Positions 13,713 through 47,176 are shown, counted from the first letter of the stretch. The stretch is 64,000 nt of DNA from Bacteroidota bacterium (GCA_023453125.1 JAEXUB010000108.1:4694-68693), one strand, 5' to 3'. Made by a program: numbers and translations. Notes: generated from the sequence alone by a model not told the origin.

Positions 13713-13829
13713 AAAAAAAGGAAAATGAAATAAGCCGTTAAAACCATCTATTAACCGTTCATAATAAATTATTTACTTTAGGCTTTAAATAGCCGATTTT
13801 TGTGTGTCAGGAATAATCAAATTAGAGCA

Positions 13830-14939
13830 ATGGCATTTTCGGCAAGAACAAGAAATTTTTTCAATAGGTTACTCTTCAGCGGAGTCACCCTTTCCTTCTA
13901 CAAGCTGAATCTTATAGGGTGGGGACTTGTAATTGCAGCCGATACAATAATTGTAAGCCCTAAGGATCTCCTTTCAAGTTTTCCCCTGTTTCTGCAGAAC
14001 ACAATAGCATGGGGTACCGGATATCCACTAACCCTATACCTGAGAACATTTTATAAGAAATTCGATTATAAAAGCCACTCCATAGGGAGTTTGATTACTC
14101 TGATTCTGCTCGGCTCACTTGTCTGCTCTCTTATTCTCTATTCTTCGGCCGCTGCAATATACATTATTTCAGGAACCACCTCCCGCTCCATGCCTTACGA
14201 TTATTTTTTAAGACTCTGGGTAGTAGCCGACAGGATGACCCGCTTTTTCCCATTAATGACCACCTGGAGCCTGATGTATTTCGGAATTAAAATCTGGATC
14301 GATTTTACAATCGAAAGGGAAAAAGTAATTAAAGCAGAACTATTCGCACAGCAGGCACAGCTTCAAATGCTGCGGTACCAGATAAATCCCCACTTTCTTT
14401 TCAATTCATTCAGTTCTTTGAGAGCTTTAACCAGAAGCGCACCAAAAAAAGCCGAGGAAATGATTTCCAAGCTATCTGAATTTTACCGCTATTCCCTTGT
14501 CTCAAGAAATCATGAAGTCTCGCTTAATGATGAGATAGAGGCAATTACACTCTACTCCGAAATAGAAAAAATCCGCTTTGAAGAAAATCTTCAGTTTGAA
14601 TTCCATATTGATCCGGTCGCAGAAGTATATCCCATCCCCTCTTTTCTTATTCACCCTCTTGTAGACAACGCAATAAAGTACGGGATGAAAACCAGCACAA
14701 TGCCTCTGCGTGTAATTATAAATGCCGAGGTGGTTAACGGTCATCTGATTATTGAGGTCAAAAACTCCGGTAAGTGGATACCTTTAAATGAAAAAAATGA
14801 ATATTACAGCACCGGGACAGGAATTAATAATATAAAGGAAAGGCTCGCATTTTCATATCCGAACAAGCATTCAATCGAAGTAACAGAAAAAGAGGGTTTT
14901 GTAAGCGTTAGAATAGAAATATTCAAGGAATTAAAATGA
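13830..14939 (+). CDS. LytS/YehU-family sensor histidine kinase
   Basis: Multi-TM N-terminus, the His_kinase block INPHFLFNSFSSLRAL and an HATPase block NAIKYG. The tracked ORF begins at TTG 13800. I prefer ATG 13830 (MAFSARTRNFF). Confidence 0.85.
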   Translation: MAFSARTRNFFNRLLFSGVTLSFYKLNLIGWGLVIAADTIIVSPKDLLSSFPLFLQNTIAWGTGYPLTLYLRTFYKKFDYKSHSIGSLITLILLGSLVCSLILYSSAAAIYIISGTTSRSMPYDYFLRLWVVADRMTRFFPLMTTWSLMYFGIKIWIDFTIEREKVIKAELFAQQAQLQMLRYQINPHFLFNSFSSLRALTRSAPKKAEEMISKLSEFYRYSLVSRNHEVSLNDEIEAITLYSEIEKIRFEENLQFEFHIDPVAEVYPIPSFLIHPLVDNAIKYGMKTSTMPLRVIINAEVVNGHLIIEVKNSGKWIPLNEKNEYYSTGTGINNIKERLAFSYPNKHSIEVTEKEGFVSVRIEIFKELK

Positions 14940-15661
14940 AAAAAGTATTTAAAGCAGTAATTATAGATGATGAAAAACTTGCTCGGGAAGACCTGCGCTC
15001 TCTCCTTGAGGAATTCCAGGAAGTCCAGATAATCGGAGAAGCTGGAAATGCCGATGAGGCTAAAAAGATAGTTGCAGAACTCGATCCCGACCTTATATTC
15101 CTCGATATCCAGATGCCGGGGAAAAACGGCTTTGAACTGCTCAGCGAATTAAATACCAGAGCCAAGATAATTTTTGTAACCGCATATGATGAGTATGCAA
15201 TTAAAGCATTCGAAGTAAATGCGCAGGACTACCTTCTCAAACCGGTAAACTCAAAAAGGCTCCAATCCTCCCTTGAGCACCTTAAAACAGCACGGATAGA
15301 AAAAACGTCGGATGCCAAGACTTTTGAATACGGCGACAGCTTCTTTCTTATGATAAATAATGCATACCAGTTTATCAAGATAAGCAGCATTATATGTATA
15401 ACTGCGGCAGGGAATTATTCCGAAATTACAACAAACAGCAAAATAAAGGGACTCGTTCTTAAATCGATGATAGAATGGGAGAACAAACTGCCGGCAGGTA
15501 CTTTCGTCAGGATTCACAGGAACGCAATCATTAATCTTGAATATATTGACCACGTAGAAGAATGGTTTAATTATTCTTACCAGATTTATTTGAAGGGACT
15601 CGAGAAACCTGTTCTGATGAGCAGGCGCTATGCAGCCAAACTGAAAGAAATTCTCTCCTAA
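14936..15661 (+). CDS. LytTR-family response regulator (REC + LytTR DNA-binding domain)
   Basis: REC motifs (IIDDE..., FLDIQMPG, KP). The C-terminal LytTR block is FVRIHRNAIINLEYI. The start overlaps the kinase gene stop by 4 nt (ATGA). Confidence 0.9.
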   Translation: MKKVFKAVIIDDEKLAREDLRSLLEEFQEVQIIGEAGNADEAKKIVAELDPDLIFLDIQMPGKNGFELLSELNTRAKIIFVTAYDEYAIKAFEVNAQDYLLKPVNSKRLQSSLEHLKTARIEKTSDAKTFEYGDSFFLMINNAYQFIKISSIICITAAGNYSEITTNSKIKGLVLKSMIEWENKLPAGTFVRIHRNAIINLEYIDHVEEWFNYSYQIYLKGLEKPVLMSRRYAAKLKEILS

Positions 15662-32506: not shown

Positions 32507-34573
32507 ATGAATATTTTATTTACAAAGGTGAAAAATATAATTGCGCAGGGAACAGGATTTCTTTCAGCCGCAAAATTAAAGAGCTTATTCTTTTTATTAA
32601 TAATCATTATTAACGCCTCCCCTTTATTGAGGGCCCAGGATAGGGATACTCTAACCCTTGATAATGTGATGAAACTTTCACTTGAAGATCTTCTTGACGT
32701 AAAAGTTAAGGTTTCCACTTCCCTTCCCACCAGGCTTTACGGTTCACCGTCAACCGTAACTGTTATTGACAGAAATATTATCGAAAAATATAATTTTCTT
32801 TCGGTAGCCGAGGCAATTAGGACAATTGCCGGCGTTGAGATTCTGCAATCGAATCTTGATGTCAATATTCCAACCTTCAGAGGCGTTCTTCAGAATTTTT
32901 ATGCAAACAAGCTTCTCCTGATGGTTAACAACATCCCAACCTGGCAGCCTCTTTACGGCAATGGCACAATTGACAGAATAAGCATTAATGATATTGAAAG
33001 GATAGAAGTCCTTAAAGGACCAGCTTCAGTGCTATACGGCACCAACGCATTCAACGGAGTAATAAACATTATAACCCGCGAAGCTGGAGAAAACAGCATT
33101 TATGCCAGAATTACAGGCGGAATTCCATACACCGGATCAGCATCAGTAAATTTAAACTATTTCAGCGAGGGGTTTCATCTCTTTTTATCCGGCAGCAGCG
33201 AATATGAAACCAGCGAGCCTTACAAGATTAAACTTGCTCCCGATATTACCAGCTATGGGCAAACCTCCAGATACGGAAACGACACTCTTATTAATTTCTC
33301 AGAAGACACAAGAAAGTTTTCTTTTAGTCTTTTTTCCAAATATGAAGGACATTCGTTATTCCTTAATTTCTTCGGCCATACTTATAATTTCCCGGGAGTT
33401 TCTCTCTCCTATGCTACGGGGGGAGGGCATCCTCTTTTCAACAAAGGTACCATGGCAGGATATAAATTTGAGGCAGACCTAAATAACGAGGTTAAGTTCC
33501 TGCTGGATCTAAATTATGATTATTTCTGGCGTTATTATACTCAGAATGCCGATGAAACAAGCGGAATCCGTCTATCAGGCGACAGGTTTATGGGAGCATT
33601 AAAAACAATATACTCCTTTAGCGAGACTATAAGCAGTGAATTTGGCGCCGATATACAGTACGGGCGCTGCTTAGGGCACTATAACCTAGATCCGAGAACC
33701 GACTTTATTACAAATATTAATCTGGACAACTCAAAGAATATGACAGAATGGTCTATGTTCCTTCAGACTTATTTTGATTACAGATGGATTACTTTCTCGG
33801 GGGGAATTAGATATACAGGCAATGAAACATTCGGCAGCAACATATCGGGACGGCTTTCGGCAAACATCAACATAAACAAATTCAACACATTAAAGTTTAA
33901 TTTTGGACAGTCATTCAGAACACCCAATCTCTTAGAACTCTATTTCAACCATTGGACCATAGTCGGAAATCCAAACCTGAAACCGGAACTAAATAATACA
34001 TTTGAAATTTCATATCTCTTTGGCTTAGACAATTTACTCGCTCAAATTACGGGATATTATTCCTCCTACAGCAGCCTGATACAGAGAATACGCACTTCCG
34101 ACAACCTCTCTGTGCCTGCGACATACCGGAACGTTTCCGATTTTGATGCCAAGGGACTGGAAGTGGAAATTAAGTATGACAATCCTTCTTTTATTAACTG
34201 CTTCCTTAATTACAGTTATGTGAGCGGAGAGGGTCCTGCCGCATATTCAAATTTCCGGTTTGTTCCAGCTCATACTGTTTCGGCCGGAATCAACAAATCA
34301 TTTAATGCATTCTTCATTTCGGCCAATCTGCATGCTTATTCAGAAACAGACGGACTGCTGGGTACAATATCCGGGCAGATGCTTGCCGACCTTCATTTAG
34401 GATATAAGCATAAATTCGGCGGAGTTAGTTTAATTCATACAATTTCAATTAAAAATCTTACCGAAAGCGATATGCTGATTCCGGAGTACATAAGACAGCG
34501 CCCCACAATTAACACCTTACCTACAGCCGGGGCCGGAAGAAGATTAGTCTATACTGTAAATCTAAATATATAA
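32507..34573 (+). CDS. TonB-dependent outer-membrane receptor
   Basis: Signal peptide, the plug block IERIEVLKGPASVLYGTNAFNGVINIITR, and a long beta-barrel with aromatic/Gly repeats. Confidence 0.85.
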   Translation: MNILFTKVKNIIAQGTGFLSAAKLKSLFFLLIIIINASPLLRAQDRDTLTLDNVMKLSLEDLLDVKVKVSTSLPTRLYGSPSTVTVIDRNIIEKYNFLSVAEAIRTIAGVEILQSNLDVNIPTFRGVLQNFYANKLLLMVNNIPTWQPLYGNGTIDRISINDIERIEVLKGPASVLYGTNAFNGVINIITREAGENSIYARITGGIPYTGSASVNLNYFSEGFHLFLSGSSEYETSEPYKIKLAPDITSYGQTSRYGNDTLINFSEDTRKFSFSLFSKYEGHSLFLNFFGHTYNFPGVSLSYATGGGHPLFNKGTMAGYKFEADLNNEVKFLLDLNYDYFWRYYTQNADETSGIRLSGDRFMGALKTIYSFSETISSEFGADIQYGRCLGHYNLDPRTDFITNINLDNSKNMTEWSMFLQTYFDYRWITFSGGIRYTGNETFGSNISGRLSANININKFNTLKFNFGQSFRTPNLLELYFNHWTIVGNPNLKPELNNTFEISYLFGLDNLLAQITGYYSSYSSLIQRIRTSDNLSVPATYRNVSDFDAKGLEVEIKYDNPSFINCFLNYSYVSGEGPAAYSNFRFVPAHTVSAGINKSFNAFFISANLHAYSETDGLLGTISGQMLADLHLGYKHKFGGVSLIHTISIKNLTESDMLIPEYIRQRPTINTLPTAGAGRRLVYTVNLNI

Positions 34574-34599
34574 TTTGGTTCAATACAGGTTATCATACT

Positions 34600-35145
34600 A
34601 TGGCATTTAATAAAAAACCGGCCTTTGCAAAAAGCACCTTTATAACAATGATTCTATTAATTGTTTTTACGGGACGCTCATTTTCGCAAAGCAATGAATA
34701 TCTTGTAAAAGCGGCTTACATAGAAAAATTTGCCCGATTTACCGAATGGCCGGCCAGGGCGCTGGAAGGGAAATTTATAATTGCCATCCTGGGCAAAGAT
34801 CCTTTTAACGGGGCTCTTAAAGATATAGCCGGAAAAGAAAAAATTAAAGGGCTCCCGGTAGAGGTACAGATTATCAATGACATATCGGAGCTTGGAAGAT
34901 GCCATATACTTTTCATTGCCAAAGAAAGGGGGAACTCCCTTAATCAAATTCTTTCTCATCTGGGCTCACGGCACATTCTTACCGTAAGCGACTCAAAAGA
35001 TTATTCCGAAAAAGGAGTGCATTTTAACTTTTACTTTACCGATAAAAGCACGATTCATTTTGAAGTTAATCCGTCAAGCTTAAAAAAATCGGGATTAAAT
35101 ACTGATATGTATCTTCTTCAGTTCGGCAAAAAGGTTGGAGGCTGA
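34600..35145 (+). CDS. YfiR-like periplasmic protein (DUF4154)
   Basis: The signal peptide is followed by YLVKAAYIEKFARFTEWP, CHILFI and VHFNFY...IHFEVN, the pattern I associate with DUF4154/YfiR. Confidence 0.75.
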   Translation: MAFNKKPAFAKSTFITMILLIVFTGRSFSQSNEYLVKAAYIEKFARFTEWPARALEGKFIIAILGKDPFNGALKDIAGKEKIKGLPVEVQIINDISELGRCHILFIAKERGNSLNQILSHLGSRHILTVSDSKDYSEKGVHFNFYFTDKSTIHFEVNPSSLKKSGLNTDMYLLQFGKKVGG

Positions 35146-35146
35146 T

Positions 35147-38100
35147 GTGTTGAATTCTTTTTCAAACTTTTCAATCCGCAACAAAATAATCCTGATAGTA
35201 ATGATGATAAGCATCATTACCACCTCTATCAGCATTTTTATGAGTCTTAAACTTGAAATTGCCGATTATAAGGATAAAGCCGCAGACGAAGCCGTTACTA
35301 ATGCGCGCCTGATTGGACAGTATTGTGTAATGCCTCTTGAATTTAATTACCCGGCAAATGCAATTGAAACCCTGGAAAAATTAAGCACCGTCCCTTTCAT
35401 AACAGACTGTCTGCTTTACGATGCCGGAAACAATCTTTTTGCCGAGTATCGCAAGGATGCCGGCAACAGGGCCGAAATTCCGGATGAACTGACTGAGGAA
35501 GGATATATCTTTGAAGACGATTTCATATACGTTCTGTACAAAATAGAATACAAAGGAGTTCATTACGGAAAACTTTACCTCAAAGCCCATGCGGGCATAA
35601 GCGAAATTGTATCCGGCAAGGTTTACACCGGATTATTACTTGTAGCCGGAATTCTTTTCCTTTCATTTATCCTTACTACCCTTTTACAAGGCTACATAAC
35701 TGCCCCAATTTTAAAATTAAAGAAATTCACGGCCAAGATATCCGAGACAAAAGATTATTCTCTCAGGATTCAGCCTTATGGAACTGATGAAATAAGCAAT
35801 CTTTATACTGAATTCAATTTACTTTTGAACACACTCCAGAAAAGCGAAACAGATATAAATGAGGCTCATATTTCCTTAAAATCAAGCGAGGAATTATTGA
35901 GGCAGAACCGTAATATGCTTCTTAATATTATGGATACAATTCCACAGTCTGTTTTCTGGAAAGATATAAATTGTGTTTATAAAGGATGCAATAAAAATTT
36001 TGCCTATTCTCTGGGCTATTCAAGTCCTGCGGAAATTATTGGCAAAAACGACTTTGAACTATCCCCTCCTGAACTTGCCGTAAATTATATAGCTGACGAC
36101 AAGGAGGTAATGGAATCAGGAATAATTAAGCATCATATTCTTGAAGAAGTTGTGAGCCGGAACAAAACCAGTATGTGGGTTACAACTACTAAAGCGCCAT
36201 TATATGATTCAGAGGGAAAGGTAACAGGTATTCTCGGCATGCTTGAGGATATCAGCGAGCGGAAAAAAGCCGATGATGCATTAAAAGAAAGCGAAGCATA
36301 TAATAAGGTGCTTTTCCGCGATTCTAACATACCTCTTGTTGTAATGGATTCCGAAAGCCTCCGGTTTACCGATTGCAACGATGCCGCAACGAGAATTTTC
36401 GGATTCGGTTCCAGGGAAGAGCTTTTGGGGCTTTCAATCGAGGATGTGTCTCCCCCTCTTCAAAAAGAAAAAAAATCATCGTCCGATGCAATTGCCGGAA
36501 TGATTGATATTGCATTAACTAAGGGGGCGGTGCTCTTTGAATGGCAGCATTTAAAGCGTTCGGGAGAAATCTGGGACGCCGAAGTGCATCTTATGTCATT
36601 TACTTATAAAAATAAGCAATGGCTTAAATTCAGTCTGATGGATATAACCGAGAGAAAAAAAGCAAATGAGAGTTTAAAAGAGAGTGAATGGTTTTTAAGC
36701 AAGGCACAGGAAATTGCCCGCTTCGGAGCATATAAACTAGATTTTGCAACCGGATACTGGACAAGCTCCAAATTACTTAACGAAATATTCGGAATCGATG
36801 AATCTTTTGAGACTAATTTGGAAGGATGGATTAGGATTGTTCATCCTGAATGCAAAGAAGAAATGAGTGAATATCTGGTACGTGAGGTTATTAAAGGGAA
36901 AAAACCATTCGATTACCAGTACAGAATATTAAGGATTAATGACTGCGCGGAAAGATGGGTCCACGGAAGGGGAACTCTTGAATTTGACGAATCGGGAAAT
37001 CCCATAACAATGATAGGAACCATTCAGGATATAACTGACAGGAAACAGGCCGAAGAGGCAATCAGGCAAAGCGAAATTAAGTACAGGCTACTTTTTGAGA
37101 ATATGACAGCCGGTTTTGCCCTTCACGAAATGCTGTGGGATGATAAGGGAAATCCGGTTGATTACATATTTATTGAAGCCAACCCGGCGTACGAAAAACT
37201 TACCGGCATTAAAATTGCCGACATAACCGGCAAAAGAGTGAAAGAGCTAATACCAAATCTTGAACAGGAGTGGATAGATAAATTCGGTAATGTTACGGCA
37301 ACAGGAGAACCAATTTCCTATGTAAATTTTGTAGGCGCTATTGGAAAGTATTACGACACATATGCTTTTAGGCCTGGTACTAATCAATTTGCTGTTGTAT
37401 TCACCGATATAACAGAAAGAGTGCTGTCCGAGGAAAAGCTTCAGAAGAGCGAAGCGCGTTTAAATGAAGCCCAGAGGATTGCCCATATTGGCAACTGGGA
37501 ACTGGATCTTTCCACTAACATACTTACCTGGTCCGACGAAGTGTATAGAATATTAGGAATTGAAAAAACTGATGAAGAGCTTACATATGAAGGGTTTATA
37601 AATCTTATTCATCCCGATGACCGCCAAATGGTTATTACCGCCTATTCCGATTCCCTAAAAAACAGAACTCCATATGACTTTATTCATAGAATCCTATTTG
37701 GAGAGGGCAACGTAAAATTTGTTCATGAACAGTGCGAAACAAATTATGATGAATCGGGGAATCCAATTCATTCTTTCGGAACTATTCAGGATATTACCGA
37801 TTATATTAATGCTCAGGAAGCGCTGAGGGACCGGGAAGAGAAGCTGAAATTCTTCTTTGACACAATGGCTCAGGGAGTGGTTATTCAGGATACTTCCGGG
37901 AAAATAATTGAAGCGAATGATGCAGCATGCCGGATATTGGGATTGACTATGGACCAGATGCTGGGCAAGACGATTTACGATCCGGAGTGGAAACTAATTA
38001 AAGAAGACGGAACTCCTATGGGGCCGGATGATATGCCTTCAACATTGGCTCTTACCGGAGGCAGGCCGGTTGAAAATATATTCTTCGGGGTCTACATACC

Positions 38101-39748
38101 CGCACTTAAGAGACACAACTGGCTCCTTACAAGCTCCGTACCGAAATTCAAACCGGGGGAAAACAAGCCTTATATTACAATTACCACCTTTACCGATGTG
38201 ACCGAGAGAAGGGAAATTGAAGAGGAACTTAGAAAGCACAGGGAGAACCTTGAAGAGCTTGTAAAAGAAAGAACGCGCGAACTCGCCGATTCAAATGCAC
38301 TTCTTCAAAGCGCAAAGGAAAATGCCGAAGCTGCAAACAGGGCAAAATCTGTTTTCCTTGCTAATATGAGTCACGAGTTGAGAACTCCGATGAATGCAAT
38401 TATCGGTTTTTCTGAAATTCTTGAAAAACTGGTTACCGAACCAAAACAGAAGAATTATCTCACTAAAATTCAGTCGGGAGGCAATACTCTCCTCTCTTTA
38501 ATAAATGATATTCTAGATCTTTCGAAAATTGAGGCAGGGAAACTTGCAATTACTTACCGGCCCGTATCCGTGCACAAAGTATTTGACGAAACATTTCAGA
38601 TATTCACACAGAGAATGGCAGAAAAAAGCATTGAGCCTACAATTGAAATCTCTCCCGACATACCCCGCTCCGTAATTATGGACGAAACAAGGCTGAGGCA
38701 AATACTTTTAAATTTAATCGGGAACGCAGTAAAATTCACAAAAGGGGGTTCTGTATCTCTTAAAGTATGGAGTAAATTCGATATTGACTCAACACGCAGC
38801 TGTTTTGACCTCTGCTTTTCTGTAGAAGATACAGGCATTGGAATTCCTGAAGACCAGTATGATCTTATATTTGAACCTTTCGAACAGCAGAAGGGAAGAG
38901 CCGGGTTTGATTTCGGCGGCACAGGACTTGGGCTTTCAATTACTAAAAACCTTGTAACGGCACTAAATGGGGAGATTAAGGTAAAATCGGCAATTGATAA
39001 GGGTGCAACCTTTACAGTAATACTTCGCGAGGTTGAAGTCTGTATTACAGAAACCGATGAATCGGCTGAAAATATGAAAAGCATTTTTAATTTCGAAGCA
39101 GTGGATTTTGATAAGGCAACTATTCTGGTTGTGGATGATATTGATTACAACAGAGACCTGATACGGGGTTTTCTTGCAGGATACAACTTCACTATCCTTG
39201 ATGCTGAAAACGGAAGCAAGGCTCTTGATCTGGCAAACAAATATAAACCGGATATGATTCTTCTTGACATGAAAATGCCCGTAATGAACGGATACGAAGC
39301 GGCTTCTATTCTGAAAAACGACCCTGCGATGAAGAATATTCCGATTATATCAATTACCGCATCTGCGCTTACTGAAGATGAGATGAAAATCTCGAGCCTG
39401 TGCGACGGATATCTCCGCAAACCGATGCACCGGCACGAGCTTGTTGAAATGCTGATGAAGTATCTCTCTCATAAAGTTAACGATGAATTTATTACCGCCG
39501 CCGGAACTGCAGAGGAACCGGTTTATACTTTAGATCAATACATAGGTAAACTTGATCCTATGGTTATAGGCGAAATGATAAAATCAGCCGATATGGCCGA
39601 TGTTTTTAAACTCCGGGCACAAATTGAAAAATTTGAAAGTTCACTACCCGGACTGGCACGTCTTCTATATTCATTAATTGATAAGTTCGACTATGATAAA
39701 TTGAAAGAAACCCTTAAATTGCTTGGACGGAAAGATGGAAGAAAGTAA
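35147..39748 (+). CDS. Hybrid sensor histidine kinase: TM-periplasmic (CHASE8-like)-TM-HAMP, six PAS/PAC, HisKA, HATPase, REC, ~100-aa tail
   Basis: H-box ANMSHELRTPMNAIIGF. The N/G boxes are NLIGNAVKFT and GTGLGLSI. REC motifs are VVDDIDYN, LLDMKMP and RKP. PAC linkers of the DITERKKA type recur six times. The tracked ORF starts at TTG 35135. I prefer GTG 35147, which lies 5 nt after GGAGG (35137..35141) and right after the yfiR-like stop. Confidence 0.9.
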   Translation: MLNSFSNFSIRNKIILIVMMISIITTSISIFMSLKLEIADYKDKAADEAVTNARLIGQYCVMPLEFNYPANAIETLEKLSTVPFITDCLLYDAGNNLFAEYRKDAGNRAEIPDELTEEGYIFEDDFIYVLYKIEYKGVHYGKLYLKAHAGISEIVSGKVYTGLLLVAGILFLSFILTTLLQGYITAPILKLKKFTAKISETKDYSLRIQPYGTDEISNLYTEFNLLLNTLQKSETDINEAHISLKSSEELLRQNRNMLLNIMDTIPQSVFWKDINCVYKGCNKNFAYSLGYSSPAEIIGKNDFELSPPELAVNYIADDKEVMESGIIKHHILEEVVSRNKTSMWVTTTKAPLYDSEGKVTGILGMLEDISERKKADDALKESEAYNKVLFRDSNIPLVVMDSESLRFTDCNDAATRIFGFGSREELLGLSIEDVSPPLQKEKKSSSDAIAGMIDIALTKGAVLFEWQHLKRSGEIWDAEVHLMSFTYKNKQWLKFSLMDITERKKANESLKESEWFLSKAQEIARFGAYKLDFATGYWTSSKLLNEIFGIDESFETNLEGWIRIVHPECKEEMSEYLVREVIKGKKPFDYQYRILRINDCAERWVHGRGTLEFDESGNPITMIGTIQDITDRKQAEEAIRQSEIKYRLLFENMTAGFALHEMLWDDKGNPVDYIFIEANPAYEKLTGIKIADITGKRVKELIPNLEQEWIDKFGNVTATGEPISYVNFVGAIGKYYDTYAFRPGTNQFAVVFTDITERVLSEEKLQKSEARLNEAQRIAHIGNWELDLSTNILTWSDEVYRILGIEKTDEELTYEGFINLIHPDDRQMVITAYSDSLKNRTPYDFIHRILFGEGNVKFVHEQCETNYDESGNPIHSFGTIQDITDYINAQEALRDREEKLKFFFDTMAQGVVIQDTSGKIIEANDAACRILGLTMDQMLGKTIYDPEWKLIKEDGTPMGPDDMPSTLALTGGRPVENIFFGVYIPALKRHNWLLTSSVPKFKPGENKPYITITTFTDVTERREIEEELRKHRENLEELVKERTRELADSNALLQSAKENAEAANRAKSVFLANMSHELRTPMNAIIGFSEILEKLVTEPKQKNYLTKIQSGGNTLLSLINDILDLSKIEAGKLAITYRPVSVHKVFDETFQIFTQRMAEKSIEPTIEISPDIPRSVIMDETRLRQILLNLIGNAVKFTKGGSVSLKVWSKFDIDSTRSCFDLCFSVEDTGIGIPEDQYDLIFEPFEQQKGRAGFDFGGTGLGLSITKNLVTALNGEIKVKSAIDKGATFTVILREVEVCITETDESAENMKSIFNFEAVDFDKATILVVDDIDYNRDLIRGFLAGYNFTILDAENGSKALDLANKYKPDMILLDMKMPVMNGYEAASILKNDPAMKNIPIISITASALTEDEMKISSLCDGYLRKPMHRHELVEMLMKYLSHKVNDEFITAAGTAEEPVYTLDQYIGKLDPMVIGEMIKSADMADVFKLRAQIEKFESSLPGLARLLYSLIDKFDYDKLKETLKLLGRKDGRK

Positions 39749-40715
39749 AAAGAACATATTGATAATCGATGATATTCCGGACAATCTAACCGTATTATCG
39801 GAGCTGCTCATTGCAGAGGGTTATACGGTACGCCCGGTTACTAGCGGCTCTGCCGCACTCAAAACAATTGCCAATGCAATTCCGGATCTCATCCTTCTCG
39901 ATATTAAAATGCCCGAAATGGACGGCTTTCAGGTCTGCAGAAGAATTAAAGCCGACGAAAAACTGAAAGACATTCCGGTTATTTTTATTAGCGCTTACGG
40001 GGAAGAAACCGAGAAAATCAAGGCATTCGAAGCAGGAGGAGTTGATTATATACTGAAACCGTTCCATTCCGGAGAAATTTATGCCCGCGTGAAAACCCAT
40101 TTATCACTTGCCGAAGCAAAAAAAAATCTTGAGAATCTTAATTATAATCTTGAAAAAATGGTTTTTCAGAGAACAATGCAGCTTGAAGAAAGCAACGCGA
40201 AATTCAAAAAATCGGAGGAAATGTTTTCAAAGACATTCCATCTTAATCCCCTTTCAATGATTATTTGCACCATTAAAGAGCACAGAATATTGGAAGTGAA
40301 CAAGGCCTTTGAAAAGAACATTGGATACTCATCTGCAGAGGCAATTGGAAAAACTATGGATTCGCTGAAAATATTAAGCGATATTGACTCGGTTGAATCG
40401 GCAATCAACCGGGAAACTGGAAATAAATTCAGGAATATTGAAACCTTATTTACAGCAAATGGGAATGAAACAAGGACCGGACTTATTTACTGCGAAAGAA
40501 TAGATTTTGCCGATGAAGAATGCAATTTGATGGTAATTGAAGATATTACCGGATTAAAACAGAACGAAGCAAAAATAAAGGACCAGCTCGAAGAACTTCA
40601 AAAATGGTTCAGCGTTACTGTTGACAGGGAAGAAAGGGTAATGGAATTGAAATCCGAGGTTAATGCCCTTCTTTCAAGGCTTAATGAACCGCCTAAATAT
40701 ACTACCACAAAATGA
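39735..40715 (+). CDS. Response regulator REC + coiled coil + PAS, no recognisable output domain
   Basis: MEESKKNILIIDD, LLDIKMPEMDG and LKPF define the REC. A PAS-like region follows (PLSMIICTIKEHRILEVNKAFEKNIGYS). The start overlaps the kinase gene end by 14 nt. Confidence 0.85.
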   Translation: MEESKKNILIIDDIPDNLTVLSELLIAEGYTVRPVTSGSAALKTIANAIPDLILLDIKMPEMDGFQVCRRIKADEKLKDIPVIFISAYGEETEKIKAFEAGGVDYILKPFHSGEIYARVKTHLSLAEAKKNLENLNYNLEKMVFQRTMQLEESNAKFKKSEEMFSKTFHLNPLSMIICTIKEHRILEVNKAFEKNIGYSSAEAIGKTMDSLKILSDIDSVESAINRETGNKFRNIETLFTANGNETRTGLIYCERIDFADEECNLMVIEDITGLKQNEAKIKDQLEELQKWFSVTVDREERVMELKSEVNALLSRLNEPPKYTTTK

Positions 40716-40718
40716 ACA

Positions 40719-41801
40719 TTAAGCTTTTTTACATGGGAGCTTTACCCTAACAATGGTGTGGCTCTTCTTTTTGCTTTCAATCTCCAGGCTTCCTCCGTGC
40801 ATCTGAACAATATTTTTCACTATTGCGAGTCCGAGACCATTCCCCTGCTGACTGAAATCCTCCCTGCTGAACTGCTGGAATAATCCGATCTGCTCAATTT
40901 CCGAGTCAGTCATTCCTATTCCGGAATCTTTAATTTCGATTGTATATAATTCATCCGAACAGGTGCCGTTAACTTCAACACTGCTCCCCGCCTCGGAATA
41001 TTTTGCGCTATTTTCAAGTATCTCTTTCAGCATTCTGACCATTTGCAGGTCGTCTACTTCAATTTCTGCAGGTAAGACTGAAATCTTTATATCGTCCGAA
41101 CGTTCCCTCAGCATATAATGATTTTCTATTATGCTGTCTATTAACATCTTATCAAAAAGCACTTCATCAGTATTTTTTCTTTCTGACGGTTTGGAACGGG
41201 CAACATTCAACTCTGCATAGGCTATAAATTTTTCTATCCTGTTATGAAGTCTGTTTGCAGACCAGAGAATTCTCTCTACCATTTCCTTTAATTGAGTCTT
41301 TTCCATCTCCTCAATTCCTTCAAGCACCAGATGAGAATAGCCGATTATTGAAACAAGGGGAGTCCTTAATTCGTGAGGTATATACATATTGATATTCTTG
41401 ATAAGAGAATTGAACTGGTCCCTGACTTCTTTCTGTTTTTCCATTCTGATTTCAATAGCCTTAAGAAGATCGGACGACGAAAAAGGTTTTGTAATATAAT
41501 CATCAACTCCCAGATTGAGGCCGGCCCTAATTGATGAAAGATCAGAATGCGCCGTAAGGAAAATAAATGGAATGAACTTTGTATCGAAATCGGATTTAAC
41601 ATATTTATGGAACTCATATCCGTTCATCTTAGGCATCATAATATCGCAGATTATGAGATCCGGTTTAGTCTGTTTAAGCAGAGCAACCCCTTCGGTACCG
41701 TCACTGCCGCACATAACCTCATATCCTTCAGAAGAAAGAAGTTCGGTTAAATTATTCATAATATTTTCATCATCTTCAACTACAAGTATTACCTTTTTCA
41801 T
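40719..41801 (-). CDS. REC-HisKA-HATPase fusion (response regulator / histidine kinase)
   Basis: The N-terminal REC has VVEDDE, ICDIMMPKMNG and TKPF. The H-box is IPHELRTPLVSIIGYS. The HATPase region has GNGLGLAIV. Confidence 0.88.
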   Translation of the reverse strand: MKKVILVVEDDENIMNNLTELLSSEGYEVMCGSDGTEGVALLKQTKPDLIICDIMMPKMNGYEFHKYVKSDFDTKFIPFIFLTAHSDLSSIRAGLNLGVDDYITKPFSSSDLLKAIEIRMEKQKEVRDQFNSLIKNINMYIPHELRTPLVSIIGYSHLVLEGIEEMEKTQLKEMVERILWSANRLHNRIEKFIAYAELNVARSKPSERKNTDEVLFDKMLIDSIIENHYMLRERSDDIKISVLPAEIEVDDLQMVRMLKEILENSAKYSEAGSSVEVNGTCSDELYTIEIKDSGIGMTDSEIEQIGLFQQFSREDFSQQGNGLGLAIVKNIVQMHGGSLEIESKKKSHTIVRVKLPCKKA

Positions 41802-41809
41802 TACGACCT

Positions 41810-43663
41810 CTAATTAAGATTAGTATTGAGAGGCAGTTCAACTGTAAACCGGCTCCCTTCCCCTGTTTTACTCTCCAGTTTTATAGTGCCCCGATGCAGT
41901 TCTACAGATCTTTTAACTATAGACATACCGAGTCCGGTACCCCTTATGGCTCCGATATTGCTCCCCCTGTCAAACGGGTCAAAGATTCTTTTCTGATCTT
42001 CTTCCGGTATTCCTATTCCGTTATCGGAGACTTCAAATATAATTGTTCCATCACCGTCTTTCGCTTCAAAACTAACCAGGCCTCTTTCTCCGGAAAACTT
42101 AATGGCATTGGAAAGAAGATTGTTAAGAATATGTTTTAAAAGCTTTTCGTCAATTTCATAAATTTTTCCTGCAAGCCTGTAATGGAAATCGAGTATGTTG
42201 TTTTCATTTGTAAGTGTTTTTGCCTCATCAACAATAACTGAACATAGATTTTCAAGATCTACCGGCTGGGGGTCAAAACTTATTTTTCTTGCCTCGGCCC
42301 TGCTTACCGTAAGAACGTCATCCATTAATCCGGTTAGATATTTTATGGCTTTTTTAATCCTGTCCGTGTGCACAAAAAATCTTTCTTTGTCTCTGTTTTC
42401 CCAATGTTTTTCAGAAAGCTCAGTGGAAGAAAGAATAGTTGCAAGCGGAGTTCTGAATTCGTGGGAGGCGGTTGAAATAAATTCCGATTTAAGCGCATTT
42501 AATTCCTTTTCTTTCTCCAGAGCCGCAATTACCTTTTCTTCAGCTTCTTTCTGCTTAAGAATTTCTTTTTGCAGAAGATGATTTAGTTCTTCAAGACTCC
42601 TGGTTCTCTCCGAGACTATGTTCTCCAAATGAAGCCTGTAATCGGCAAGTTCCTTTTCTATCTTCTTTCTTTCCGAAATGTCTTTTGCAATTCCAATTAC
42701 TCCTTTTGGTGAGCCGTCCTCTTTGTAAAGCAGCGAGAGACTTAGTTCTGCATAGAACCTGTCCCCGTTCTTTTTAACAAATATATATTCATCATTTGAA
42801 TGAGTTCCTTCAACAATGGCTTTTTCAAGATTTCTGTATATCTTATCCAATTCCCCCTGTTCAATAATTTCTCTGGCACTATGGCTCATCAATTCCATTT
42901 TTGATGAATAACCATGCATTTTGGCTGCGGCACCGTTAGCAAGAATTATATCCCCCTCAATGCTGAGAAGCAAAATAGCATCCGGCGAAGTTTCAATAAG
43001 TGTACGGTACTTCTCTTCGCTTTCTTTCAATAAAGCTTCCGCCTTCTTCCTTTCGGTAATATCAATACTTGCGCCCCGGTATCCAACGAGTTCATTCTTT
43101 GAAGATATAACAGGGGAAGCGTTCGATTCAAGAATAACATCGTTTCCGTTTTTATGCGAGAATACTGCCACATAACTTTTCAAAGAGTTTCTATTTAAAA
43201 ATGCCTGTTCAAGATCCAATCTTAAAGTGGGATTCTTTTCAAGATTAAGCAGGTCGTAAATTGTTTTATTTTCTATTACCTCTTCAGGGCTATATCCAAG
43301 TATCACCTTAACGACCGGATTAACGTATGCAAATTTACCGCCTATCCCTATTTCCCAGATTATTTCACCCGAATTTTCTGCAATCTGCTTAAAACGGTCT
43401 TCGGATCTCCTGAGAAGTTTTTCCGAACCGATAATCTGTTTAACCCTTCGGGCAATCAGAAAATATAGGAGAGTTGAGGTAAAAAGAATAAAGAAAAACC
43501 CCTTTAGCATTGCGATTTTAATAATTACAGAAGGATTTGAAGTAAATAACTCTACAACCGAGTCGGATAGAAAAATCCAGAGACTGCCGAAAAAGACGTA
43601 AACAGCAACAATTTTTACAACTGCCAGCCGGTCTTTATACTTAAGTGTAGCATTCTTATTCAA
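41810..43663 (-). CDS. Membrane PAS sensor histidine kinase (2 TM, 2 PAS, HisKA, HATPase)
   Basis: Two N-terminal hydrophobic helices, two PAS/PAC modules ending in DITERKKAE and DISERKKIE, the H-box STASHEFRTPLATI, and GTGLGMSIV. Confidence 0.9.
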   Translation of the reverse strand: MNKNATLKYKDRLAVVKIVAVYVFFGSLWIFLSDSVVELFTSNPSVIIKIAMLKGFFFILFTSTLLYFLIARRVKQIIGSEKLLRRSEDRFKQIAENSGEIIWEIGIGGKFAYVNPVVKVILGYSPEEVIENKTIYDLLNLEKNPTLRLDLEQAFLNRNSLKSYVAVFSHKNGNDVILESNASPVISSKNELVGYRGASIDITERKKAEALLKESEEKYRTLIETSPDAILLLSIEGDIILANGAAAKMHGYSSKMELMSHSAREIIEQGELDKIYRNLEKAIVEGTHSNDEYIFVKKNGDRFYAELSLSLLYKEDGSPKGVIGIAKDISERKKIEKELADYRLHLENIVSERTRSLEELNHLLQKEILKQKEAEEKVIAALEKEKELNALKSEFISTASHEFRTPLATILSSTELSEKHWENRDKERFFVHTDRIKKAIKYLTGLMDDVLTVSRAEARKISFDPQPVDLENLCSVIVDEAKTLTNENNILDFHYRLAGKIYEIDEKLLKHILNNLLSNAIKFSGERGLVSFEAKDGDGTIIFEVSDNGIGIPEEDQKRIFDPFDRGSNIGAIRGTGLGMSIVKRSVELHRGTIKLESKTGEGSRFTVELPLNTNLN

Positions 43664-43753
43664 GCAAAATATTCCGCCGATTAAAACTATGAAATTAAAA
43701 ATTTACCCTTTAAAATCAAAGACATTACCATCCCGATATTTACTTCTCTATTT

Positions 43754-46700
43754 CTATTCAGCCGCCTGGAATCTGAGGGTGAAAATTGTACCGATTCCTA
43801 TTTCGCTTTCAACAGAAATTGAACCGTTAAGCAGCTCGGTATATTTTTTTGCAATCGAAAGTCCAAGCCCGGTCCCCTGGAATTCCCTATTAATTCCTTC
43901 ACTCACCTGTCTGAATTCCTCAAATATTATTCCCAGGTTGTCTTTGTCAATTCCAATTCCGGTATCTTTAATCCTTATAAATACATTATTTCCTTCTTTA
44001 CCAGCTTCAATTGAAACCGAACCCCGTTCAGTAAATTTGATTGCGTTATTAACGAGATTCTCCAGAATTACCGCAAAGAATGATGGATCGGAGTTTATAT
44101 ACATCCCGTCGGGACACTGTAAAACCATTTCAATGTGCTTATCAATGGCAGCACCGCGGAACATTTTCTCTATTGTTTCAAGTTCATCTTTTACATCGAG
44201 CCGTTTTAAAACTATCTGATATTTCTCCGATTCTATCTTTGTGAAATTTAAAATCATATTGAGTGTATTAAGAAGCCTTTTGCCGGATCTTTTAATTCCC
44301 TTAGACATTTCGACAAGCTCTTCATCTTTCAGGATTTCCGAAAGCAGATCGGAATAGCCGAGAATTCCAATTAATGGAGTTCTAAGTTCGTGGCTCATAT
44401 TGGCAAGAAAGAGATCCTTGGTTTTATTGGCTTCTTCTGCCTTATTCTTTGCATCCATTAACTGTTCAAGAATCATTTTCCTGTCTGTTATATCTTCTTT
44501 TACGGCAATAAAATGCGTTATCCTGTTCAGGTCATCCTTAATTGCTGATATAGAAGCCGATTCCCAGTAATATGTTCCGTCCTTTTTTCTGTTCCGGAAT
44601 TGCCCTTTCCATAGTTTTCCGTCAAGAATTGTATTCCAAAGCTCCTTATATTCTTCGCTGGTTTTATTCCCCGAACTAAAAATTCTAGGATTTTTTCCAA
44701 TCACTTCATCATAAGAAAATCCGGTAATCTCCAGCAGGTAAGGATTAACATATTCAATAGTTCCTTTGACATCGGTAATAACTATTGAAACCGGGCTCTG
44801 TTCCGTGGCTTTAAATAATTTTTTTAAGTTTTCCTCATAGAGTTTCCTGGCAGTAACATCATGGGCTACTCCCTGTAAACCGCATACTTTACCGTTTTTA
44901 TAAACCGGATATTCAAAAACCTCTAAAAGTATTTTAGATCCGGATGCGTGTTTTACTTCAAGCACCATGGAGTTCTCTGTAAAGTCCCCGTTAAGGTGCC
45001 TGTGAGTCAATAATTTGGCGTTTTCATTAATTATACTATCCGTCAGGAACCAGCCCTTTTCCATAAGCCATAATTCAACCGGATAGCCTGTAATTTTTTC
45101 AACTGTAGAAGAGACGTAAGTAGTATTTGCATTCTCATCCTGCGTGTAAAAGAATAAATTGGGAGTGCCTTCAATTATAGCCCTCATCCTCTCTTCACTT
45201 CTTAGAAGCGATTCCTGAGAGGCTCTTTCTTCCGTCTGGTCCCTGAATACAAGAACAACGCCGGTAATGTTTCCGTCCTTATCTCTGATAGGGGCTCCGC
45301 TGTCTGCAATAGGTCTTCTGCTCCCGTCTTTTGAAATAAGTATTGTGTGGTTTGCAAGTCCAACTACAACCCCTTCGTTAAGAACTCTGCTTACAGGGCT
45401 TTCAACTTTATTTCCGTTATCTTCGCAGATAATGTTAAATACTTCATCAAGGTATTTACCCTTTGCCTCTTCCTCTTTCCATCCGGTCAATCCCTCGGCA
45501 ATTGGATTAATCTGCCTTATGAGTCCCGATTTATCAGTGCTGATAACTGCATCACCTATACTGTAAAGAGTTGTATGCAGTTCCTCCTTCAGCTCCCACT
45601 GCAGTTTTTCTGCTTCTTTTCTCTCGGTAATATCTCTTGTAATGTTCAGTATATGGTTTACCCCTTCGAGCTGAATGATGGAAGCAGACATTAGCCCGTA
45701 TTTTATGGACCCATCCTTCATCCGGAAGCGTGCCTCAAGGTTATTAACCTGCCCCGATTTTGAAAGCCCTTCAATCAGTTTACTCCTGGATTCGGCATCG
45801 GCCCATATGCTGATTTCTGCTGAAGTGCGCCCAACCACTTCTTCTTCGGTATAACCTGTAAGCTGTGTAAAGCCGTTGTTAACTGAAACGTATAGCCCGT
45901 CCGATAAGCGGTTAATATTAACCGAATCGGGACTTGTATAGAAAGCTGTTCTGAATTTCTGTTCGCTCTGCAGAATATTCTGTTCCGCTTTTTTTCTTTC
46001 TGTAATGTCCCTTATAACCGAAAGAAGGTATTTTTTTTCATTCAGATTTATTAAAGTGACGGAAATTGAACCGGTAAAAACAGATCCGTCTTTTTTCCTA
46101 AAATCGGACTCGTAATCATAAACCGAACCGGAACGGTTGATTGCATCAACAATTTTGTTTCTCCCCTCTTTCTCAATCCATAAACCGGCATCAACCGTAG
46201 TCCTGCCAATCAGTTCAGATGCCTTGAAGCCGAAAATCTGCTCGTTGCATTCTATAATCATTCCGGTTTCAATTTCAGTTATAAAAATAGCATCCCCGAT
46301 TGTTGCAAAAATTGACCTGTAAATCTCTTCCCGAATTTTTAATTCTTTTGCGGTTTTTTTCGAATCGGATATATCTTCAACAGTGCCCTCGTAATAAAGA
46401 GTAACACCGAATTCATCCTTAACGGATTTTGAACTTTCCCTAATAAAAAGTTCCGTACCGTCTTTTTTATACCAGACATCTTCCCAACCCCTGAGAGTCC
46501 CTTTTTCTTCAACCAGCTTTTTAAAATCAACCCTGCGGTAATTTGGTTCATACCCGTCTTCTTCCAGGTTGCGGTTAGAAAAATCCTCAAATGAATCATA
46601 ACCGAGCATTTTTATGAGGGTAGGATTTGCCAGCAGAATCCTCCCGTCGGGTGTGGTTCGGTAAAATCCGATATTATCATTTTCATAAAGGCTTCTGAAA

Positions 46701-47176
46701 GTTCTCTCTCTTTCGAGGAGCAGCTGTTCATCCTTTTTCTGTTTCGTTATATCTTCAACATTGCTTAAAATCAGGTCTTCATCATTTTGATTTATCAATA
46801 CGCCTGATACTTTTACTGTAATTGTATCCCCCCCGGCGGTAATTATCTTTCTCTCATAAGGGCCGTAAGAACCGTTTTCTTTGAGATTTTTCATCTGCTC
46901 GTTATCCGATTCATCGAAGCCTTCCGGGCTGACTCCCTTATAATTTAATTTGCGCAGCTCAGATAAATCATAACCCAGCATTTTAATTAGAGCTTTATTG
47001 GCATCAACAAATGCCCCGTCCAAACGGTTTATGGAAATTCCTATGGGAGATTTTTCGAAAAGCAGCCTATTGAATTTTTCACTCTCGCGCAGTTTGGCTA
47101 TAGTCATCTGCTGATCTTCCAGAAGATTAAGAAAAGCAGACTTGAGGTTTTCTGAATCCATGTTGTTTTTTGCCAT
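43754..47176 (-). CDS. Soluble multi-PAS sensor histidine kinase (about seven PAS/PAC, HisKA, HATPase)
   Basis: No TM segment. About seven PAS/PAC modules have recurrent DIT(E/D)RK linkers. The H-box is ANMSHELRTPLIGILGYS, with GTGLGLSIA in the HATPase region. Confidence 0.9.
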   Translation of the reverse strand: MAKNNMDSENLKSAFLNLLEDQQMTIAKLRESEKFNRLLFEKSPIGISINRLDGAFVDANKALIKMLGYDLSELRKLNYKGVSPEGFDESDNEQMKNLKENGSYGPYERKIITAGGDTITVKVSGVLINQNDEDLILSNVEDITKQKKDEQLLLERERTFRSLYENDNIGFYRTTPDGRILLANPTLIKMLGYDSFEDFSNRNLEEDGYEPNYRRVDFKKLVEEKGTLRGWEDVWYKKDGTELFIRESSKSVKDEFGVTLYYEGTVEDISDSKKTAKELKIREEIYRSIFATIGDAIFITEIETGMIIECNEQIFGFKASELIGRTTVDAGLWIEKEGRNKIVDAINRSGSVYDYESDFRKKDGSVFTGSISVTLINLNEKKYLLSVIRDITERKKAEQNILQSEQKFRTAFYTSPDSVNINRLSDGLYVSVNNGFTQLTGYTEEEVVGRTSAEISIWADAESRSKLIEGLSKSGQVNNLEARFRMKDGSIKYGLMSASIIQLEGVNHILNITRDITERKEAEKLQWELKEELHTTLYSIGDAVISTDKSGLIRQINPIAEGLTGWKEEEAKGKYLDEVFNIICEDNGNKVESPVSRVLNEGVVVGLANHTILISKDGSRRPIADSGAPIRDKDGNITGVVLVFRDQTEERASQESLLRSEERMRAIIEGTPNLFFYTQDENANTTYVSSTVEKITGYPVELWLMEKGWFLTDSIINENAKLLTHRHLNGDFTENSMVLEVKHASGSKILLEVFEYPVYKNGKVCGLQGVAHDVTARKLYEENLKKLFKATEQSPVSIVITDVKGTIEYVNPYLLEITGFSYDEVIGKNPRIFSSGNKTSEEYKELWNTILDGKLWKGQFRNRKKDGTYYWESASISAIKDDLNRITHFIAVKEDITDRKMILEQLMDAKNKAEEANKTKDLFLANMSHELRTPLIGILGYSDLLSEILKDEELVEMSKGIKRSGKRLLNTLNMILNFTKIESEKYQIVLKRLDVKDELETIEKMFRGAAIDKHIEMVLQCPDGMYINSDPSFFAVILENLVNNAIKFTERGSVSIEAGKEGNNVFIRIKDTGIGIDKDNLGIIFEEFRQVSEGINREFQGTGLGLSIAKKYTELLNGSISVESEIGIGTIFTLRFQAAE

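Follow-up and report, generated by a model that had tools for sequence, protein, structure and literature searches.

A convergent 12-kb histidine-kinase locus in an Ignavibacteriales genome as two probably independent two-component modules

In the YfiBNR (TpbB) system of Pseudomonas aeruginosa, the periplasmic domain of the sensor YfiN, which is classed as CHASE8, is repressed by the periplasmic protein YfiR, and an outer-membrane partner lifts this repression (PMC8085984). Here we describe a 12-kb locus (positions 35147-47176) in a 64,000-nucleotide (nt) stretch of DNA from a Bacteroidota bacterium (GCA_023453125.1 JAEXUB010000108.1:4694-68693), which is called the window below. The locus resembles YfiBNR at its upstream edge, where a gene for a secreted YfiR-family protein directly precedes the gene for an inner-membrane sensor with CHASE8 and HAMP domains. 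The sensor is a hybrid histidine kinase (HK) with a fused receiver (REC) domain, and the locus further encodes a REC-PAS protein and, on the opposite strand, a kinase headed by a receiver (REC-HK) and two PAS kinases. A hybrid kinase normally requires a histidine phosphotransfer (HPt) domain to reach a second receiver. Kinases that begin with a receiver, among them CheS3 of Rhodospirillum centenum and REC-HK proteins of Legionella, are known from networks of several kinases.

Comparison of the locus with these systems, with relatives and with the rest of its genome suggests that it probably consists of two two-component modules that are independent of each other and meet tail to tail in a kinase-rich Ignavibacteriales genome. 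Its modules are ordinary, evolutionarily stable and of known kinds. The genes of the two modules are as follows.

32507-34573, plus strand, TonB-dependent outer-membrane receptor (Pfam Plug and TonB_dep_Rec_b-barrel), first gene of the plus-strand unit
34600-35145, plus strand, YfiR-like periplasmic protein (DUF4154; Pfam PF13689, 122.4 bits against a cut-off of 24.9)
35135/35147-39748, plus strand, hybrid HK
39723/39735-40715, plus strand, REC-PAS protein
40719-41801, minus strand, REC-HK
41810-43663, minus strand, membrane HK with two PAS modules
43754-47176, minus strand, soluble HK with seven PAS modules, first gene of the minus-strand operon

The original prediction, made from the DNA sequence, had described five genes with four HKs, three RECs, about 16 PAS modules and minus-strand gaps of 90 and 8 nt, and this layout was confirmed by open reading frame (ORF) calls and by Pfam and NCBIfam annotation. 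Its start coordinate cut off two upstream co-directional genes of the plus-strand unit, those for the TonB receptor and the YfiR-like protein. The five proteins contain HisKA plus HATPase_c four times and Response_reg three times, and the 16 PAS modules are six, two and seven TIGR00229 stretches in the hybrid, membrane and soluble kinases, respectively, plus one PAS_9 in REC-PAS. The public gene call of the hybrid kinase (1533 amino acids, aa) places its start at 35147, which leaves a 1-nt gap after the stop codon of the YfiR-like gene, and the start of REC-PAS overlaps the end of the hybrid-kinase gene by 14 nt. On the minus strand, 90 nt separate the soluble from the membrane kinase and 8 nt the membrane kinase from REC-HK, and 3 nt lie between the convergent stop codons of REC-PAS and REC-HK. 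A promoter and terminator scan gave counts equal to or barely above the shuffled expectation and did not inform the operon boundaries.

The catalytic and receiver domains are intact. HisKA and HATPase_c scored above the Pfam cut-off in all four kinases, each of which keeps its G1 (DxGxG) and G2 (GxGLG) boxes. The H boxes read SHELRTPM, SHEFRTPL, SHELRTPL and, in REC-HK, IPHELRTPL; the pattern search missed this last box, as it did the N boxes of the hybrid kinase and REC-HK, and all three were read by eye. The hybrid kinase has intact H, G1, F and G2 boxes in addition to this N box. The three RECs scored 71-104 bits for Response_reg and all retain the acidic pair, the phospho-Asp, the T/S and the K residues (DD, D, S and K in REC-PAS; ED(D), D, T and K in REC-HK), and in the alignment of hybrid-kinase RECs the DD/D/T/K set is invariant. 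None of the five proteins matched a DNA-binding, GGDEF, CheB or Hpt family of Pfam or NCBIfam, so that the predicted lack of a helix-turn-helix, GGDEF or CheB output was borne out.

The hybrid kinase is composed of a transmembrane segment, CHASE8 (residues 46-149), a second transmembrane segment, HAMP, six PAS modules (about 255-1026), HisKA (1071-1135), HATPase_c (1183-1299), REC (1330-1440) and a C-terminal tail. CHASE8, which is flanked by the two hydrophobic segments, scored 29.1 bits (cut-off 27), and HAMP was slightly under its cut-off (21.3 bits, cut-off 25). The translated YfiR-like protein has a signal-like hydrophobic segment at its N-terminus. The gene order TonB receptor, DUF4154 protein and CHASE8-HAMP kinase is that of an NCBIfam trio, each member of which is the specific match of the corresponding gene: NF053590 (TOL_0244 family) was the best NCBIfam match of the receptor (101.9 bits, cut-off 645), NF053591 (TOL_0243 YfiR-like) matched the YfiR-like protein (98.5 bits, cut-off 125), which also scored 34.9 for sequest_YfiR (cut-off 85), and NF053592 ("sensor histidine kinase, YfiR-like protein-associated") matched the N-terminus of the hybrid kinase (138.7 bits, cut-off 194). 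The scores below cut-off indicate distant relatives of the trio rather than equivalogs, and the hybrid kinase differs from the trio kinase by its long PAS array, REC and tail. The literature searched on CHASE8, TonB and YfiR modules yielded nothing specific.

The unit differs from YfiBNR in several respects. HisKA, HATPase_c and REC, placed behind six PAS modules, form the output here, and none of the five proteins has a GGDEF domain; the outer-membrane gene encodes a TonB-dependent receptor instead of the OmpA/Pal-like lipoprotein YfiB, and this receptor is absent from four other syntenic relatives; and the sequest_YfiR match is below cut-off. From the YfiR-like gene, the CHASE8/HAMP gene order and the described mechanism (PMC8085984), we infer that the plus-strand unit is a YfiR/YfiN-style switch, in which a kinase replaces the cyclase and a TonB receptor replaces YfiB. 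In this first module (plus strand, 32507-40715), a periplasmic switch of the YfiR/YfiN type would have a kinase output: the secreted YfiR-like protein would control the CHASE8-HAMP sensor, possibly reporting the cargo or state of the TonB receptor, the six cytoplasmic PAS modules would supply further inputs, and the kinase would phosphorylate its own REC, the translationally coupled REC-PAS, or both.

Pairing of the hybrid kinase with REC-PAS was examined in phylogenetic trees of 75 usable receivers and 84 kinase cores of the genome. A hybrid kinase encoded on contig C262 is sister to that of the locus in both REC and core, and the REC of REC-PAS groups with that of the REC-first kinase encoded directly after the C262 hybrid kinase. 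This matching pair suggests that a hybrid kinase and its downstream REC protein form a duplicated two-gene unit. The pairing was kept in all five relatives examined. Among full-length NCBIfam profiles, the hybrid kinase was most similar to TorS, ArcB and BarA, with all scores far under the equivalog cut-offs; it shares with these kinases the type of its core (FLANMSHELRTP) and the fused receiver, and it differs from them in lacking an HPt domain.

Beyond its REC, the hybrid kinase ends in a conserved module without a name.

39524-39745, plus strand, C-terminal helical tail of the hybrid kinase, about 74 aa (residues 1464-1537), not an HPt domain

This tail had no Pfam or NCBIfam match, and many hybrid kinases across several phyla have a conserved counterpart of it behind their REC. 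Identity with HPt was considered and rejected: the 96-aa tail searched alone at E<=10 gave no Hpt match; in 26 homologues, no residue is invariant and no His is conserved; the AlphaFold2 (AF2) model (pLDDT 86.5-89) has four short helices of only about 10-12 residues each; and a Foldseek search of the model against the PDB returned nothing at E<=0.001, with HPt domains appearing only at E of about 5. The original statement that the tail lacks an HxxKG motif of HPt domains was thus upheld. The gene after a tail-bearing kinase begins with a REC in four of five unrelated contexts, and other homologues have a longer version of the tail. The four Hpt matches of the genome are all on other contigs. 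The sole small carrier of the stand-alone type found among them is a 240-aa REC-HPt protein with an HDIRGTGG motif (C29:8705-9424, plus strand), which is a candidate relay for hybrid kinases that lack HPt.

REC-PAS consists of a REC, a signalling helix, a PAS domain and a C-terminal motif, with no recognised output domain. Its orthologues form 16 clusters with 57-92% identity; six of the 16 were candidates for linkage to a hybrid-kinase homologue, and location on the same contig was confirmed for three of these six. The closest proteins after these orthologues are cyanobacterial, with the architecture REC-PAS-HisKA-HATPase.

40575-40712, plus strand, 46-aa motif at the C-terminus of REC-PAS, I..Q..ELQ.W......RE.R..ELK.EVN.LL.RL.EPP.Y

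The motif has 17 invariant columns in 16 sequences and is far more conserved than the variable PAS core. When 1.84 billion representative proteins were searched with a profile, it was found in 4029 of them at E<=1e-3 and in 1253 at E<=1e-10, at the extreme C-terminus in nearly all matches, and a pattern scan of the ORFs of the genome itself found it only once. All ten motif proteins scanned were sensor-only, with REC, MASE1, GAF, PocR or HAMP plus PAS and no enzymatic or DNA-binding output, and in all three unrelated contexts examined the motif proteins adjoin kinase genes. The motif corresponds to no Pfam or NCBIfam family and was not described in the literature searched. HEF_HK (PF19191) was considered for the C-terminus of REC-PAS and discarded, since its one 14-bit match, obtained on an isolated piece, was reproduced in none of 17 orthologues. 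In a relative (G003), two motif-ending ORFs (L011:1-1677, contig G003:C70) lie directly 5' of a co-directional operon that encodes a TonB receptor, a YfiR-like protein, a CHASE8 kinase, a LytTR regulator, a REC-HK and a methyl-accepting chemoreceptor (MCP). This operon joins the themes of both halves of the locus.

The motif is the best candidate for an effector or interaction element of REC-PAS, and the effector would probably be this conserved C-terminal helix, acting on another protein and not on DNA. A tentative extension is that the two unnamed C-terminal modules may together define how "output-less" two-component proteins signal: the motif perhaps as an output element, for example a His-less DHp-like hairpin docking onto kinases, and the tail perhaps as a docking domain that replaces the HPt step. 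An interaction between the two modules was also considered; outside the orthologous clade, their co-occurrence is inconsistent, with the tail alone at three loci (L120-L122), the motif alone at two (L124 and L125) and both at one (L123).

On the minus strand, REC-HK has the architecture REC-HisKA-HATPase_c without a sensor domain, and the membrane kinase has two N-terminal hydrophobic helices, two PAS modules, HisKA and HATPase_c. The fusion of a receiver to a sensor-less kinase implies control through phosphorylation by another kinase; CheS3 and the Legionella REC-HK proteins are alike in architecture, with an N-terminal receiver on a sensor-less HisKA kinase. Homologues of REC-HK were found in all 31 genomes searched, and REC-HK homologues named as Ignavibacteria, Ignavibacteriales and Melioribacteraceae indicate where the genome of the window belongs. 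Among 30 REC-HK loci, 18 had the order sensor kinase, REC-LytTR regulator and REC-HK, six lacked the regulator (including the window and its same-genus relative), five were solitary and one had a bare REC, and the ORFs downstream of REC-HK encoded MCPs in all eight cases scanned. No description of such a LytTR/MCP cassette in Ignavibacteria was found in the literature searched. The cassette of PAS kinase, REC-LytTR regulator, REC-HK and MCP recurs at loci L010-L035 of relatives G003-G029 and, within the genome of the window, at C48:14391-19867 and C276:19732-27292.

The locus shares with this cassette the REC-HK orthologue, the kinase-core clade and the REC clade: directly upstream of the REC-HK orthologue lies a kinase of the LytTR-linked clade, which shares 54% identity over 287 aa with the kinase that precedes LytTR and REC-HK in G003. 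It differs in that the soluble seven-PAS kinase heads the operon, no LytTR gene lies in the 8 nt between the membrane kinase and REC-HK, and the convergent REC-PAS, not a chemoreceptor, follows REC-HK. In the REC-HK tree, the copy of the window pairs with its same-genus orthologue (support 100), and this pair is nested in a group with four LytTR-linked copies (SH-aLRT 91), which indicates that the LytTR regulator and the chemoreceptor were most likely lost from the locus.

The trees of genome receivers and kinase cores also support a partnership within this operon. One clade (SH-aLRT 99) unites the RECs of the three REC-HK paralogues with those of six LytTR regulators linked to PAS kinases, and the core of the membrane kinase groups with five LytTR-adjacent PAS kinases (SH-aLRT 93) inside a 12-member clade with support 100. 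Membrane kinase and receiver thus belong to matching partner clades, which supports transfer from this kinase to REC-HK; the core of REC-HK itself is a separate deep lineage. The kinase cascade through REC-HK that had been proposed is therefore plausible on comparative grounds, with the phosphotransfer step itself a prediction from these clades. The second module (minus strand, 40719-47176) would be a reduced cassette of sensor kinase, LytTR regulator, REC-HK and chemoreceptor, in which the genus lost the LytTR and chemoreceptor genes. The membrane kinase, perhaps together with the soluble kinase, would phosphorylate the REC of REC-HK, and this REC would gate the sensor-less kinase toward a regulator encoded elsewhere, likeliest of the LytTR type.

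Elsewhere in the genome, the candidate partners comprise eight LytTR regulators, encoded on contigs C48, C87, C156, C218 (two), C232, C263 and C276, together with the REC-HPt protein on C29 and about 20 single-domain receivers. The nearest LytTR regulator (14936-15661) belongs to a LytS-like kinase and LytTR pair 20 kb upstream in the window (13800-15661, plus strand); its REC falls in a different clade from the REC-HK/LytTR group, which makes it an improbable candidate for the missing partner. At C276:22642-23826 (minus strand), a 395-aa REC-HK-like ORF with a divergent kinase part and a very long branch is flanked by genes for a LytTR regulator and an MCP, and it may be a degenerate pseudo-kinase. 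The third REC-HK paralogue (C14:2-5085) adjoins genes for an MCP-like protein, a CheY-like receiver and a contig-truncated CheA.

The kinase-proximal PAS module of the soluble kinase resembles described flavin-type domains.

44477-44830, minus strand, PAS module 7 (residues 782-900) of the soluble kinase, NifL/MmoS-type (flavin-type) by similarity

A phmmer search of this module against the PDB gave 3EWK (E 9.7e-31) and 2GJ3 (E 2e-17), which we take to be the MmoS PAS pair and NifL PAS1, respectively, both FAD-binding, and LOV domains followed at 1e-12 or weaker. Module 7 aligns over its full length with NifL PAS1 and MmoS PAS-A/B and has their common W-G-x-f-x-NRrKDGt-yW block, and it differs in its setting, a seven-PAS histidine kinase rather than the anti-activator NifL or MmoS. 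In place of the GRNCRFLQ of LOV domains (motif GxNCRFLQ) it has GKNPRIFSSG, and the LOV cysteine is thus missing. The resemblance to NifL and MmoS suggests a flavin redox input adjoining the DHp domain. In most relatives, the soluble kinase lies beside bPH, rex and hydrogenase genes.

The arrangement is stable in evolution. The same-genus genome keeps it entirely with 57-65% protein identity, and four metagenomic relatives (L036-L039) are syntenic from a DPP-IV gene to the bPH gene, three of them onward to rex. The hybrid kinase with REC-PAS and a long soluble kinase (seven or eight PAS modules) were always present in these four relatives, REC-HK was present in three and the membrane kinase in two.

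Orthologues of the hybrid kinase range from 1012 to 1662 aa, and their PAS arrays vary: p1-p2-p3-p4-p5-p6 in the window, and p1-p5; p1-p5-p4; p1-p5-p2-PocR-p4-p6; p1-p2-X-p5-p2'-p3-p4; and p1-p2-Y-p3-p4-p6 in relatives. When the array of the window (35897-38212, plus strand) was compared with P0005-P0012 and L036-L039, the cassette breakpoints fell at the linkers between modules, and PocR was inserted in some proteins. The linker DNA of the hybrid-kinase gene contains microhomologies of 20-27 nt, such as 24 nt at 92%, and these might serve as recombination joints. The PAS array of the soluble kinase is collinear with those of its orthologues; in four of the five examined, one further PAS separates modules 6 and 7, which suggests a clean one-module deletion in the lineage of the window. 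The shuffling of PAS modules that had been proposed thus occurred between species, essentially in the hybrid kinase only, and not within the locus.

Local duplication of PAS modules, which the original prediction had read from the recurring linker, was refuted by identity and phylogeny. That prediction had itself named such a result, PAS modules no closer to one another than to those elsewhere in the genome, as one half of what would refute it. The genome (3.39 Mb, 279 contigs) has an unusually high number of signalling genes for its size, with at least 84 HisKA kinase cores and 76 receivers in 74 ORFs, and a hidden Markov model built from the 16 local modules detected 174 PAS domains in 58 ORFs, including a 2568-aa protein with 13 PAS, two REC and an HPt domain (C271:908-8611). 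For 157 near-full-length domains (the 16 local ones and about 140 others), mean identity was 0.192 both within the locus and between the locus and the rest of the genome; random sets of 16 gave 0.185 +/- 0.009, and 22% of them reached the observed value. The best within-locus pair was 38% identical, whereas local modules reached up to 57% identity with modules on other contigs, and the nearest relative lay inside the locus for only one of the 16. On a FastTree phylogeny of the 157 domains, the label "local" required 15 changes for 16 tips, compared with 14-16 for ten random label sets. The locus contained no long DNA repeats, only 20-49-nt matches in linker-coding segments.

The linker D[IV][TS][ED]RK occurs 35 times in 22 ORFs across the genome and only eight times in the locus, so that its recurrence is no sign of local duplication. 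The claim that it recurs about 16 times in the locus held in a loose form, with a D[IV][TS] ending after 13 of the 16 PAS modules; the strict form D(I/V)(T/S)(E/D)RK(K/Q)xE was found only four times. The 16 modules are old, diverged cassettes, and the DITERK...SE linker is an ordinary PAS-PAS junction.

Several observations weigh against the proposed pair of modules or parts of it. All three scores for the NCBIfam trio are under their curated cut-offs. None of the four other syntenic relatives has the TonB receptor, and two of them lack the YfiR-like gene; coupling of these proteins to the hybrid kinase is thus not obligatory. The step from the hybrid kinase to REC-PAS may be indirect because the locus has no HPt domain. 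The core of the soluble kinase has no clear partner clade, and both the REC and the kinase-core trees were built on short alignments and have many unresolved forks. Finally, REC-HK could be a phosphate sink or a phosphatase rather than a second-tier kinase.

This last point belongs to a broader alternative, in which REC-HK and the hybrid-kinase REC serve as phosphate sinks or as phosphatases, REC-PAS is a phospho-dependent modulator whose C-terminal helix binds kinases, and the output tunes kinases or chemotaxis with no gene-regulatory end point. The position of motif proteins beside kinase genes in the three contexts and of two more upstream of the G003 operon, the linkage of related REC-HK cassettes to chemoreceptors and of the C14 paralogue to MCP, CheY and CheA genes, the lack of HPt in the locus and the H-E-x-x-T phosphatase-type motif retained in REC-HK would all fit it; we nevertheless consider it unlikely, since REC-HK keeps all its ATP-binding boxes and is therefore probably an active kinase, and since its relatives are paired with a DNA-binding LytTR regulator, which indicates that the family normally feeds a transcriptional output. 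A separate role for the soluble kinase, as a flavin redox sensor tied to the bPH/zinc-ribbon gene, rex and an NADH-linked hydrogenase operon with its kinase neighbours incidental, is fairly unlikely. It draws on the NifL/MmoS-type PAS directly before DHp and on the order PAS kinase, bPH, Rex and NuoE/F-like kept in L036, L037 and L038, of which L037 has neither REC-HK nor the membrane kinase. On the other side, L039 keeps bPH without an adjacent rex, the soluble kinase runs in the same direction as the membrane kinase with a gap of only 90 nt, and no regulator connects it to rex.

The integration of all these proteins into one network, which would have arisen by local PAS duplication and shuffling and would reach a single output through a kinase cascade, was the original view of the locus, and it is now very improbable. 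The convergent arrangement is kept in at least five related genomes, PAS cassettes were rearranged among hybrid-kinase orthologues, and linker-coding DNA holds the 20-49-nt microhomologies, all of which could be taken in its favour. However, PAS identity within the locus is at the genome level, with one local nearest neighbour in 16 and random-like clustering in the tree, and the linker motif is found throughout the genome. Four of the genes (those for REC-HK, membrane kinase, YfiR-like protein and TonB receptor) were gained and lost independently and are variably missing from relatives, which makes a single network doubtful, and the two halves differ in paralogous origin. Two independent modules, one on each strand, are the more consistent reading of these results.

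For the biology of these proteins, the results mean that a recurring DITERK linker together with many PAS modules is not evidence of local duplication. The hybrid kinase provides a worked example in which PAS cassettes were exchanged, lost and reordered at linkers among orthologues, while the kinase core and the partner stayed fixed. The LytTR cassette, which is apparently conserved across Ignavibacteriales, yields a testable partner for the "orphan" REC-HK. The post-receiver tail may explain how hybrid kinases without HPt pass on their signal, and the 46-aa motif may explain the signal output of a large class of sensors that have no recognisable output domain.

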